From positions 1,664,001 through 1,728,000 of the forward strand of contig CAVTRN010000001.1 in assembly GCA_963737155.1 (NCBI GenBank): 64,000 nucleotides of DNA. The letters are read 5' to 3'. The translations under genes and the position numbers were made by a program. The stretch's first letter is position 1. Every line of letters starts with the position of its first letter. Under the pieces are notes generated by a model that saw only the letters and a program-made list of their open reading frames with translations, did not search any database and was not told where the DNA came from. The DNA is from Nitrospirota bacterium. GTDB taxonomy: Bacteria; Nitrospirota; UBA9217. Shown in pieces: positions 10,852 to 13,692 of this stretch.

Positions 10852-13692
10852 ATGAAGATTATTGAATATGACGACCTTGATACATCAAAAGTGAAGCGTC
10901 AATACGGAAAGCTCATTGGCTTTCTTGAAAAGGACGATTTATATTCGGCAGAAGTTAAAAAACTGTCTGAACAGGATCTATTCCGAGCTAAGCTTGATGA
11001 TACCAATCGTCTCCTGTTTAAAATCATGACCTATGGAGGGGAGAGGTACGCCCTCATACTTGAGGTTGTGCTGAATCACGAGTATGATAAATCGAAGTTT
11101 CTGCGGGGCGTTCGAATTGACGAAGCAAAGATTCCGATTGTCGAGTCGGCGGCCGTGGGATGCGAAAAGCTTCCCGTCCTCTCATATATCAACCCGTCGC
11201 TTATCCGGTTTCATGTTCTTGACAAGGTGATATCTTTTGATCCTGATCAGCAAGAATCCTTTCAGCATCCCACGCCGCTCATCATCATTGGCCCCGCCGG
11301 CAGCGGCAAGACTGCGCTAACCCTCGAAAAGATGAAGCAAGCCCAGGGTCAGGTCCTGTATGTGACCTTGTCGCGCTACCTTGCGGATAATTCCCGAGAT
11401 ATTTATTATTCCCATCACTATGAAAACAATGAGCAAGAGATTGCCTTCCTGTCGTTCCGGGAATATCTTGAAACGATGCGGGTCCCCGAGGGCAGGGAAA
11501 TCACCTACCGGGCCTTTGCCGGATGGCTCACGAGGATTCCGAAGCAGCAACGCGTCTCCGACGCTCATCGTCTCTATGAGGAGTTCCGTGGTGTATTGAC
11601 CGGATCCATCATAGACAAACCATGGCTTACTCGCGAAGAGTACCTCGGGCTCGGAGTTCGGCAGTCCATCTTTCTTGCTGATGAGCGCGAAGCAGTATAC
11701 TTGCTATTCGAAAAATATCTTGCATTTTTGAAGGAGAATGGTTTTTACGACCCAAATATCCTGGCGCACGGTTACTTACTCCATGTAAAACCGTACTATG
11801 ATTTTGTCGTTGTTGATGAGGTGCAGGATATTACGAACATCCAGCTTCAGCTCATTCTCCGGAGTCTGAAGCGGCCTGATGATTTTATTCTCTGTGGTGA
11901 TTCTAATCAGATCGTCCATCCTAATTTTTTCTCATGGAGCGGCCTCAAAACTATGTTTTATCAGGCCGATGCTGTTGAATCAGGCAAGATGACGCGAATT
12001 TTACAGTCGAATTTCCGCAACTCGGTTTCCGTTACCAAACTTGCGAACAAGCTGCTCAGGGTAAAACACAAACGTTTCGGGTCTATCGACCGGGAAAGCA
12101 ATTATCTTATGAACAGTGTGTCGGACAGGTCTGGCGAGATCGTTTTCGTCCGGGACACGGATAAGGCTAAACGGGAATTGAGCCAAAAGACCCGAAGATC
12201 AACGAAATTCGCCGTATTGGTCATGCGCGATGAAGACAAGGCCTTGGTGCGGCAGTTCTTTGATACGCCGCTGCTCTTCAGCATTCAGGAGGCCAAGGGC
12301 CTGGAATACGAGAATGTTGTTCTCGTGAACTTTATATCGAGTGAGCGCGCCACCTTCCAGGAGATCATTGATGGGGTGAGTGAAGAGGACTTGATCGGGG
12401 AGTTGGATTATCGGAGGGCCCGGGACAAAACGGATAAATCCCTTGAGGTCTATAAGTTCTTCATTAATTCTCTTTATGTCGCCGTCACGCGCGCCGTGCA
12501 TAAATTGTATCTGATCGAGAGCGACATTAACCACCCGTTCATCGAAATGCTCGGGATTCAGGACGCGCGAGAGGATGCTATAGTTGACGAGAAGCAGTCC
12601 AGTATTGAGGAATGGCAAGCTGAGGCCCATAAACTGGAGCTCCAGGGCAGGCAGGAGCAGGCAGACGAAATCAGGCGAGGTATCCTGAAAACTCAGCCTG
12701 TTCCATGGGAAGTGTGTACGCCGAACTACGTACTGAAACTCCTTGCGCACGTTCGAAACCCCAAGGAAGTATCACAGAAACCGAAAAAAACATTGTTCGA
12801 ATACGCGTTGTACTACGACGAGCCCCGATTAATGGACACCTTAAGCCAGAGCGGATTCGACAAGGCAAAAAAACTATTTATTACGGAGTATGGTTCCCGG
12901 TCTTTGAACGAACCTGCATACGAGCAACAAAGAAACAGTGCGTTGACTCGATACCACGAGGATTACAGGGGTCGGTTTTATAAGAACATACTCAAACAAT
13001 GCGAAACTTACGGCATCGACCACCGTACGGTATTCAACAAAACACCTCTCATGCTTGCAGCGATTGAGGGCAACGCAGCGCTTATCCGGGAACTGCTCGC
13101 AGCGGGCGCTGATACGGAAGCGATCGATCATTATGGTTGTACGGCTTGGATGGGCGCTCTAGAATGGGCACTTCAGGACCGTGAATTCGCTTCCAAACAG
13201 TTTTCCTCTGTGCATGAGCTTCTTGCACCCTCTTATATTAGTCTGAAAATTGAGGACCGCCTGGTGAAACTAGACAGCAGTCAAGGAGAATTTTTTCTGT
13301 TCGCCATCTTTTTATCACTACTGCACAAACGTTTCAACTCAAAGTACGTGGCCATGGTCTCGCTCAACGCTATTACGCTGGCGGAAAGGGGTTCCCTCCT
13401 GCCGGACAGCATCGTGCCTGGGTACCGGAAGAAGAGGACCTATATTTCGGGGCTTCTATCGAAAAATGAAACGGAAAGCTCGAATCCATACAGCAGGAAG
13501 TTGTTCAGACGTGAGCGGCAGGGGTGGTATGTACTGAATCCGAAACTCGCCGTACGTCATCGTGAGGAATGGAGAAATATCTACCAGCATGCTGGCATCG
13601 ACCTGATTGCTCACATGGGGCCGGAAGGCGAGGGGGCGTACCGCTCCATGATGGCGCACGTGCTTAGCGATGGCGGACAAAAGGTTTATTAA
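10852..13692 (+). CDS. Superfamily-1 (UvrD-like) helicase with N-terminal RelE/ParE-like domain and C-terminal ankyrin repeats
   Basis: GPAGSGKT, VVDEVQD, CGDSNQ, NFRNS, AKGLEY, LYVAVTRA helicase motifs; KTPLMLAAIEGNAALIRELLAAGAD ankyrin; N-terminal VKKL..LFRAKLDDTNRLLF resembles RelE. Confidence 0.85.
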   Translation: MKIIEYDDLDTSKVKRQYGKLIGFLEKDDLYSAEVKKLSEQDLFRAKLDDTNRLLFKIMTYGGERYALILEVVLNHEYDKSKFLRGVRIDEAKIPIVESAAVGCEKLPVLSYINPSLIRFHVLDKVISFDPDQQESFQHPTPLIIIGPAGSGKTALTLEKMKQAQGQVLYVTLSRYLADNSRDIYYSHHYENNEQEIAFLSFREYLETMRVPEGREITYRAFAGWLTRIPKQQRVSDAHRLYEEFRGVLTGSIIDKPWLTREEYLGLGVRQSIFLADEREAVYLLFEKYLAFLKENGFYDPNILAHGYLLHVKPYYDFVVVDEVQDITNIQLQLILRSLKRPDDFILCGDSNQIVHPNFFSWSGLKTMFYQADAVESGKMTRILQSNFRNSVSVTKLANKLLRVKHKRFGSIDRESNYLMNSVSDRSGEIVFVRDTDKAKRELSQKTRRSTKFAVLVMRDEDKALVRQFFDTPLLFSIQEAKGLEYENVVLVNFISSERATFQEIIDGVSEEDLIGELDYRRARDKTDKSLEVYKFFINSLYVAVTRAVHKLYLIESDINHPFIEMLGIQDAREDAIVDEKQSSIEEWQAEAHKLELQGRQEQADEIRRGILKTQPVPWEVCTPNYVLKLLAHVRNPKEVSQKPKKTLFEYALYYDEPRLMDTLSQSGFDKAKKLFITEYGSRSLNEPAYEQQRNSALTRYHEDYRGRFYKNILKQCETYGIDHRTVFNKTPLMLAAIEGNAALIRELLAAGADTEAIDHYGCTAWMGALEWALQDREFASKQFSSVHELLAPSYISLKIEDRLVKLDSSQGEFFLFAIFLSLLHKRFNSKYVAMVSLNAITLAERGSLLPDSIVPGYRKKRTYISGLLSKNETESSNPYSRKLFRRERQGWYVLNPKLAVRHREEWRNIYQHAGIDLIAHMGPEGEGAYRSMMAHVLSDGGQKVY

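Follow-up and report, generated by a model that had tools for sequence, protein, structure and literature searches.

In a genome of the phylum Nitrospirota we find a gene of 946 codons plus stop (positions 10852..13692, plus strand) that is a free-standing, ankyrin-tailed form of a known protein design, in which a RelE-like head is joined to a GajB-like helicase. The gene lies in a stretch of 64,000 nt (assembly GCA_963737155.1, contig CAVTRN010000001.1, positions 1,664,001 to 1,728,000), below called the window, and is present as a single copy in its genome of 4.84 Mb. A preliminary description of the window had singled it out as a candidate one-gene defence system, and a defence role is plausible. 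More specifically, the gene may constitute a stand-alone, one-protein anti-phage system of the abortive-infection type that is carried on mobile DNA and acts by translation arrest, a reading to which we give somewhat less than an even chance. It is favoured by the fold of the head and the invariant polar residues within it, by an intact motor, by the lack of a partner gene and by a patchy, mobile distribution. Toxin-antitoxin genes within two genes in 8/37 loci also speak for it, as do, weakly at most, defence-type genes in 8/37. Two precedents add to this: ArmD, which is reported to be essential in a phage-tested system, and the RelE domain of Cami1, which is a structural match of the head.

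Domain architecture of the protein

The open reading frame (ORF) is a genuine gene encoding a RelE-fold head, a superfamily 1 (SF1) helicase, ankyrin repeats and a possible winged helix; its coordinates, strand and ATG start were borne out by the ORF list, the translation and full-length homologs. The N-terminal RelE/YoeB-fold (BECR) domain, the putative RNase effector, covers residues 1-88 (10852..11115) according to an AlphaFold2 (AF2) model, VIA-align structure comparison, a chain search and residue conservation. A linker (residues 89-135, 11116..11256; conservation 0.43, model pLDDT 57-85) leads into the Q motif (F129, D130, Q133) and to an SF1A UvrD/GajB-like helicase core with all motifs (residues 136-560, 11257..12531), which was delimited by Pfam, PADLOC, PDB and BLASTP searches. 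The core is followed by a conserved helical hairpin with the pattern EEWQAEA..LELQG..EQA..IR (residues 561-620, 12532..12711; conservation and C-terminal model) and by helical repeats (residues 621-775, 12712..13176; Pfam, profile and VIA-align), in which residues 621-700 are variable and the canonical ankyrin repeats occupy about 700-770. A variable segment and then a basic, possibly winged-helix domain (residues 776-910, 13177..13581; AF2, VIA-align and invariant columns) precede a tail that varies in sequence and length (residues 911-946, 13582..13689) and that bears extensions in some relatives.

Across 50 full-length representatives, the mean frequency of the top residue is 0.56 in the head, 0.58-0.59 in the motor and 0.55 in the hairpin at 561-620, and drops to 0.28 at 621-700, 0.34 at 776-850 and 0.19 in the tail at 911-946. 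The lowest conservation outside the C-terminal end at 621-700 and 776-850 fits a sensor under arms-race pressure.

AF2 models were built separately for the two ends of the protein, from 60 homologs for residues 1-130 and from 59 homologs for residues 560-946. As modelled, the head belongs to the RelE/ParE (BECR-fold) superfamily by fold only. The model (pLDDT 85.5, pTM 0.81) has a strand-helix-three-strand layout (E2-6, H12-26, E43-47, E53-61, E64-73), for which the top Foldseek rows were YoeB/ParE 6n90, RelK 3oei and YoeB 7v6w. With VIA-align, 75 of the first 80 residues were superposed on YoeB 7v5y_E (Z 8.2, rmsd 2.1). When 48,161 chains were searched exhaustively and independently of Foldseek, the top 25 matches were RelE/ParE-type toxins only (Z 8.1 to 4.5); behind them came an unrelated chain at Z 4.2, and rank 50 had reached Z 2.4. 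Further structural matches include RelE 1wmi (Z 7.5-7.7), the RelE domain of Cami1 (Z 7.0 over 85 aa) and ParE toxins (Z 5.6-6.2), and VIA-align placed the ribosome-bound HigB1 7nbu_Y and Cami1 8phj_X among them. Hence the RelE/ParE-like domain of about 85 aa that had been suggested for the N-terminus was recovered as a fold over residues 1-80 by AF2, Foldseek and VIA-align (Z 8.1-8.2), while the sequence tests stayed non-significant and Pfam assigned no family to the head of the window copy.

Several polar residues of the head are strongly conserved. Among 63 full-length cluster representatives, which are only 33-55% identical within this domain, K37, R53 and H76 are invariant (63/63), Y78 is found in 62 and R45 and E71 in 61. 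RelE-type RNases use a set of basic, His and Tyr residues, and the catalytic residues of YoeB are a general-base Glu, an invariant Arg and the C-terminal His-Tyr. In the non-significant hhalign register, R53 falls on the invariant Arg of the YoeB HRLVY strand and K37 on the Lys of the EPLK loop, and H76 and Y78 come after the last strand, like the C-terminal His-Tyr of YoeB. We therefore regard the head as a RelE/YoeB-fold domain whose conserved polar site is probably catalytic, and as a putative RNase.

No cognate antitoxin gene was found, as no neighbour is conserved within four genes of the helicase gene among 78 loci. Head-only proteins exist as well, most of them on contigs under 2.1 kb and therefore probably fragments. 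Four cases of 109-144 aa (P0241/P0275, P0252, P0260, P0151) lie on contigs of 4.5-13 kb and could be free-standing toxins or split pseudogenes.

The preliminary description had called all SF1 helicase motifs intact, and this holds. Between residues ~140 and 560, modest Pfam matches exceed the curated cut-offs for UvrD_C_2 (32.6 vs 27.4 bits), PhoH (31.6 vs 27), AAA_19 (31.9 vs 25.1), UvrD-helicase (30.7 vs 23) and Viral_helicase1 (25.3 vs 21), and there is a weak match to the Schlafen group 3 helicase. In an alignment of 30 full-length relatives, 61-90% identical, the residues Q133, PAGSGKT (P148-T154), DEVQD (D322-D326), GDSNQ (G349-Q353), R389 and N390, EAKGLEYEN (E480-N488) as well as Y542, V543, A544, T546 and R547 are invariant. 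The nearest solved sequences to the motor are UvrD (7.4e-4) and PcrA, and the best PADLOC model for the protein is GajB (PDLC00107, 1e-13), a partial match over residues 313-462. The KGLE-type motif V, together with these nearest relatives, places the motor by its sequence in the UvrD/GajB-like SF1A group.

The C-terminal model (residues 560-946) reached a pLDDT of 89.8 and a pTM of 0.85. It contains the hairpin at residues 585-612 (helices H26-38 and H42-52 of the model, pLDDT 57-86), and 14 of the 60 columns in the hairpin region 561-620 are at least 90% conserved. For the ankyrin repeats that had been predicted, the window copy is marginal in Pfam, with Ank just over its cut-off (21.3 vs 21.1 bits) and Ank_2 under it (25 vs 27.3), and across the family Ank_2 matches 59/59 and Ank 57/59 members. 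The family profile also matches solved ankyrin repeats in the PDB over residues ~698-762, and VIA-align relates the tail model to ankyrin proteins over ~613-857, at a weak Z of 5.2-6.2.

At ~795-915 the tail model shows a domain of helices plus hairpins, with pLDDT mostly above 90 in residues 776-910, and R859, N872, E873, R887, G891, Y893 and W907 are invariant columns of the basic C-terminal domain. VIA-align matched ~795-915 to winged-helix proteins at Z 5.2-6.1 (rmsd 2.2-3.6 over 62-93 aa), which is below the clear level of the tool; the matches of this type were YceH, ORC2-C, the BlaI-like Rv1846c, Zalpha, histone H1, PerR, ArsR and TtgV. A PDB sequence profile of residues 778-946 gave NEQ068 as its best match at E 0.22, Foldseek with the C-terminal model returned ankyrin proteins only (TM ~0.2), and an ESM Atlas search with the tail found matches confined to its own family. 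The possible winged helix of the earlier proposal thus drew weak structural support and no sequence match, and from the model a winged helix is plausible.

Relation to known RelE-headed and GajB-like systems

Comparison of the whole protein with PADLOC and NCBIfam models yielded partial matches to the helicase core or the ankyrin repeats only. A full-text literature search found no description of a protein combining RelE, UvrD and ankyrin parts, with the limit that ARMADA Table S2, which lay outside this search, might list stand-alone forms. Multidomain RelE/ParE toxins were surveyed by Gerdes 2025 (PMC11980606), and neither the main text nor the three supplementary files of that survey contain 'helicase', 'ankyrin' or 'UvrD'. 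The gene had been described as matching no named system; this remains correct for PADLOC-DB 2023 and has to be amended in one respect, as the combination of a RelE-like head with a GajB-like UvrD helicase has been described before, in ArmD.

ArmD of ARMADA type II is reported to have this design (10.1101/2025.09.15.676423). According to that report, the four-gene cluster protects against 13/80 phages, all four genes are needed and the Walker A substitution K266A in ArmD abolishes defence; in the passages considered, it describes no mutation of the RelE-like head. We compared ArmD of E. coli Sakai (ECs_5264, 704 aa); the ARMADA type II strain is E. coli NCTC 12900. Both proteins share the design, and their motors are related (BLASTP E 8e-12, 23% identity over ~390 aa, covering the N-lobe and the stretch before Walker A), with residues 89-135 of the window protein, its linker, aligned to the segment of ArmD that precedes Walker A. 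The heads, in contrast, have no detectable sequence similarity (hhalign E 0.12). ArmD is shorter, has its Walker A lysine at K266 and is without an ankyrin or C-terminal domain. It cannot act without ArmA, ArmB and ArmC, and the four genes keep a strict order in which armD is last; the armABC products are given there as a BrxHII-like helicase, a PglX-like methylase and a YprA-like helicase, none of which occurs within two genes of the helicase gene in 37 loci.

A RelE-like domain also lies N-terminal to an SF1 helicase in the CnuH proteins of CoCoNuT types II and III-A. According to Bell et al. 2024 (PMC11090510), CnuH combines an SmpB-like OB fold, an 'RNase toxin-like' domain of RelE/colicin D fold and a UPF1-like helicase, and is encoded in McrBC-type operons with predicted RNA targeting. 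CnuH, as described there, differs in its UPF1-like motor with a coiled-coil insertion and in the SmpB-like OB fold before the RelE-like domain, whereas in the window protein the RelE fold begins at residue 1 and the core is UvrD-like. The McrBC-type operon of CnuH further includes CnuE effectors, and neither the window gene nor its scanned relatives have McrB- or McrC-type neighbours.

The effector fold is shared with free YoeB/RelE toxins and with Cami1, a CARF-RelE ancillary RNase of type III CRISPR systems; going by the title of PDB entry 8phj, Cami1 uses its RelE domain as a sensor-gated immune effector. The window protein differs from these in that it has neither a CARF domain nor an antitoxin gene, the sensor being a helicase with repeats. 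GajB, finally, shares the UvrD-like SF1A motor and is the best PADLOC match, covering part of the core only, but has no RelE head and no ankyrin tail. Its partner, the OLD-family nuclease GajA, is absent from the window and was seen among the relatives only as a fragment, in 1/37 loci (L026).

By operon content, then, the gene belongs to neither ARMADA, CoCoNuT nor Gabija. The best lead is its working resemblance to ArmD.

Distribution and genomic setting

Full-length relatives form more than 100 clusters at about 61-97% identity, and their records are mostly unnamed or carry names such as hypothetical, AAA family ATPase, PhoH family or UvrD-helicase domain-containing. When one genome per species was taken, at least 590 of 600 pattern matches encoded a relative. 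In the 80 species genomes that were retained, identity is 45-97% over the full length, and these genomes span Nitrospirota, Chloroflexota, Gamma- and Betaproteobacteria, Bacteroidota, Planctomycetota, PVC and Acidobacteriota. Searching with a head profile gave 851 clusters (50% identity clusters) at E up to 1e-3; among the 150 matches listed, the head is always N-terminal and stands in proteins of ~900-1000 aa, in fragments or in longer forms, in which the core is retained and either a C-terminal extension (DUF1186 plus SEC-C) or further ankyrin repeats are present. Examples are P0155 and P0168 (~1,370-1,394 aa), with an extra C-terminal DUF1186 domain and SEC-C zinc motif, and P0259, with a second ankyrin block. 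Within the phylum of the window, the gene occurs in 14/201 sampled genomes, the window genome included, and within its genus in 2/10 other genomes. Three copies, with 90, 69 and 68% identity to the query, are present in one genome of the phylum, and a second genome has two full-length copies. The gene is a widespread, patchy, mobile accessory gene.

Searches with tblastn located full-length relatives of 42-47% identity in 134 plasmid records, comprising 101 from Shigella, 13 from Escherichia and 10 from Piscirickettsia, and others such as Methylosinus trichosporium OB3b and Deinococcus. Its neighbours on a plasmid of Shigella flexneri are polysaccharide deacetylase/capU/virK/lpxM, and on the Methylosinus megaplasmid the gene lies beside DotA/TraY. 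There was no match among 50,697 phage records, and IMG/VR contributed two loci, one of them, L105, adjoining a Mu-like prophage end and a YfjJ/DUF3987 island. Of 5,426 complete E. coli genomes, 115 carry the Shigella-type gene (99 with at least 80% coverage), at 106 chromosomal and 10 plasmid placements, and in Pfam the layout is the same for the Shigella and the E. coli proteins. The three chromosomal E. coli copies that were inspected all lie in integrative islands, near inovirus-Gp2/YfjJ-family, AlpA, GTPase, CbtA/CbeA, antirestriction and Rpn genes. Frameshifts are annotated in two of these three (pseudogenes), whereas non-pathogenic E. coli also have intact copies, and an intact homolog is WP_000686652.1 of the environmental E. 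coli strain AVS0575. Directly upstream of the helicase homolog, after an AlpA-type regulator, all three islands have a hypothetical gene of ~177 aa without a Pfam family (L102:11422-11955, L103:11401-11937, L104:11359-11877), which could be island backbone or a local partner.

Close relatives of the window gene share more than the coding sequence. Similarity at the DNA level between the window and the loci L001, L002 and L003 is limited to 10695-~14586/14767, with unrelated flanks, and these three loci have ~4.0 kb in common with one another, from ~280 nt before the ATG to ~890 nt after the stop. The block starts with a non-coding stretch that travels with the gene (10695..10851, plus strand, from DNA similarity to L001-L003) and includes, downstream, a DUF4258 gene (13904-14227, plus strand, Pfam 1.6e-17) with its own promoter-like site at 13732-13759 and an overlapping ORF of 71 aa (14224-14439, plus strand) that is in the ORF list and belongs to no Pfam family. 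Since similarity is confined to this block while the flanks are unrelated, the helicase gene, the DUF4258 gene, the 71-aa ORF and a 155-nt element can be regarded, on DNA similarity, as a ~4-kb cassette that has moved (window 10695-14586; L001:7950-11960; L002:9713-13727; L003:9726-13720). In the window it is clipped by ~120 nt on the side of the ISL3 element, because the similarity among L001-L003 runs that much further upstream; no convincing terminal repeats were seen on the cassette in L001. DUF4258 lies downstream of the helicase gene in only 4/78 loci, namely the window and L001-L003, so that the pair is a passenger of close relatives only and not a family-wide partner.

The neighbours named in the preliminary description, ISL3 (transposase 9323-10588, minus strand, DDE_Tnp_ISL3 6.6e-58) and DUF4258, were both confirmed by Pfam. 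The proposed toxin-antitoxin (TA) pair corresponds to the DUF4258 gene and the 71-aa ORF, which has no family, and the suggested att-terminated island could not be substantiated, as the window holds no tRNA or att site and only a direct repeat of 155 nt. The two copies of this repeat (14432-14586 and 22967-23115) are 88.5% identical, on the same strand and 8.5 kb apart, bracket the segment from an ECF sigma factor to a glyoxalase gene and are the sole full copies in the genome; a partial copy lies at 26764-26814, L001 and L002 also have the element, at the right-hand end of their cassette, and it has no Rfam match.

Other features of the surroundings are as follows. Just past the cassette are a strong terminator-like hairpin (14657-14678) and, at 14668-16347, genes for an ECF sigma factor, a zf-HC2 anti-sigma factor and a Metal_resist/LTXXQ periplasmic protein. 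The only Rfam matches in the window are two tandem cobalamin riboswitches (18308-18542 and 18731-18920; 73 and 56 bits) upstream of a CbiM cobalt-uptake gene (18937-19707). The region 22000-27000 has a low GC content (0.40-0.43) and contains a ParE-like/Phd-YefM pair (23602-24187, minus strand) and a PIN-domain gene (25501-25929). On the other side, an Orn/Lys/Arg decarboxylase ORF (3435-5102), with a weak Gln-synt_N match at its start, is followed by a second insertion sequence transposase (DUF772 plus DDE_Tnp_1, 5525-6940), so that the gene lies between two insertion sequences.

No neighbour is conserved across the family. Among 471 genes within four positions of the helicase gene at 78 loci, the largest cluster is found at five loci in scattered positions, and thus the gene does not reside in conserved housekeeping synteny. 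Within two genes, transposase or integrase genes were found in 3/37 loci and credible defence-type genes in 8/37 (PADLOC, E up to 1e-15), the latter being a raw count without background control. Complete defence systems stand beside the gene in L006 (RosmerTA) and L029 (Septu); the remaining cases are a PD-T4-6-like kinase (L028), the GajA fragment (L026), methylase fragments (L008, L021), PDC-S03 (L033) and PDC-S09 (L005). PADLOC matches to ABC-transporter, UbiE and GlgB genes among the neighbours were discarded as spurious.

Proposed function and alternatives

In the mechanism that we propose, the motor, the ankyrin repeats and the basic winged-helix-like tail would act together as a sensor and switch that recognises foreign nucleic acid or protein and uses ATP. 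Recognition would release or position the N-terminal RelE/YoeB-fold domain, and the released domain would cleave mRNA, probably on the ribosome, whereupon translation would stop. In the resting state the head would be kept inactive in cis, and for this reason no antitoxin gene would be needed. We infer the RNase activity, the ribosome dependence, the trigger, the autoinhibition and the defence phenotype alike. A fuller version is offered tentatively: one polypeptide would sense infection through its helicase, ankyrin and winged-helix parts and would halt translation by its own RelE-type, ribosome-dependent RNase, held in cis without an antitoxin. Such a protein would be a prokaryotic counterpart of the logic of RNase L (ankyrin sensor and RNase) and of Schlafen proteins (RNase plus SF1 helicase), and a free-living form of the ArmD module.

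Several observations weigh against a translation-arresting defence protein. The evidence on function is computational throughout, and PADLOC-DB 2023 contains neither a named system nor a full-length match. For the head, Pfam on 60 members returned only non-significant matches (ParE_like in 4/60 at 0.029, YoeB_toxin in 2/60 at 0.078), a PDB profile search gave 0 matches at E up to 10, and hhalign against nine natural YoeB sequences was not significant (probability 1.2%, E 0.045). The position that corresponds to the general-base Glu of YoeB varies within the family (position E34, with D34, E12, Q9, N4, H2). The neighbour scan covered 125/258 genes within two positions, from 37/77 loci, and Pfam identified many of these as housekeeping genes (ThrRS/IF3, DnaB, aconitase, GltB). 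Of the eight loci (of 37) with TA genes within two genes, three are close kin. The PADLOC scan of genes within two positions was negative for credible defence-type genes in 29/37 loci, and the defence-type neighbours of the others, lacking a background control, give weak support at most to a defence role. Other accessory roles are likewise compatible with the carriage on virulence plasmids and with the frequent decay.

One such role would be a selfish or competitive function for the carrier element, with the same fold and parts serving to stabilise it as an addiction module or to exclude rival plasmids or conjugative DNA, and being triggered when the element is lost or foreign plasmid DNA enters. 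The plasmid records (134, including 101 large plasmids of Shigella and the Methylosinus megaplasmid), the E. coli copies in integrative islands by CbtA/CbeA, antirestriction and AlpA genes, the frequent TA neighbours and the near absence from viral sequences (none of 50,697 phage records, only 2 IMG/VR loci) all agree with it. Most copies in the 80 species genomes, however, are chromosomal, have ordinary genes around them and show no markers of plasmids or islands within two genes. Moreover, an ATP-driven helicase with a sensor tail exceeds the needs of an addiction module, and the persistence of pseudogenes in islands means that loss of the gene is tolerated. We regard a selfish function as unlikely.

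Two further alternatives keep the motor at the centre. The protein might be an accessory quality-control helicase for RNA or ribosomes without an immune role, its head, perhaps still a nuclease, docking on the A site or on RNA and directing the motor to translation complexes that are stalled or aberrant, as has been proposed for CnuH. RelE-fold proteins bind the ribosomal A site, and ribosome-bound HigB1 7nbu_Y and Cami1 8phj_X are among the structural matches; the weak Pfam matches to Viral_helicase1 and the Schlafen group 3 helicase, and the DUF1186 and SEC-C ends of some long relatives, are compatible with this idea, as is CnuH itself, which is reported to join RelE-like and SmpB-like domains to an SF1 helicase with a predicted action on RNA (PMC11090510). 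But the motor is UvrD/GajB-like and not UPF1-like, no SmpB-like domain precedes the RelE fold, which starts at residue 1, and a patchy, multicopy, decaying distribution on plasmids and islands is unlike that of a quality-control factor, which makes this explanation rather improbable. Alternatively, the helicase could serve DNA-directed defence or repair, with a ParE-like, gyrase-directed or purely regulatory head that is not an RNase, and take effect through GajB-like nucleotide depletion or DNA unwinding. That ParE toxins share the fold (Z 5.6-6.2), that the faint Pfam hint is ParE_like, that GajB provides the best PADLOC matches and that the tail resembles DNA-binding winged helices would be in line with such a role. 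The head, on the other hand, has its best structural matches in YoeB and RelE rather than ParE, and its invariant Lys/Arg/His/Tyr set is said to be absent from ParE-type gyrase poisons; a DNA-directed function therefore seems to us quite improbable, and the least probable of those considered here.

If the reading as a one-protein, translation-arresting defence system is true, a very common single-gene system, with relatives in at least 590 species genomes, 851 clusters and 115/5,426 E. coli genomes, would have been overlooked by current annotation. It would show a RelE-type toxin under the control of a motor and a sensor in its own chain, with no antitoxin involved, and would offer a simple model, based on a single gene, of how the RelE-like head of ArmD may work within ARMADA.

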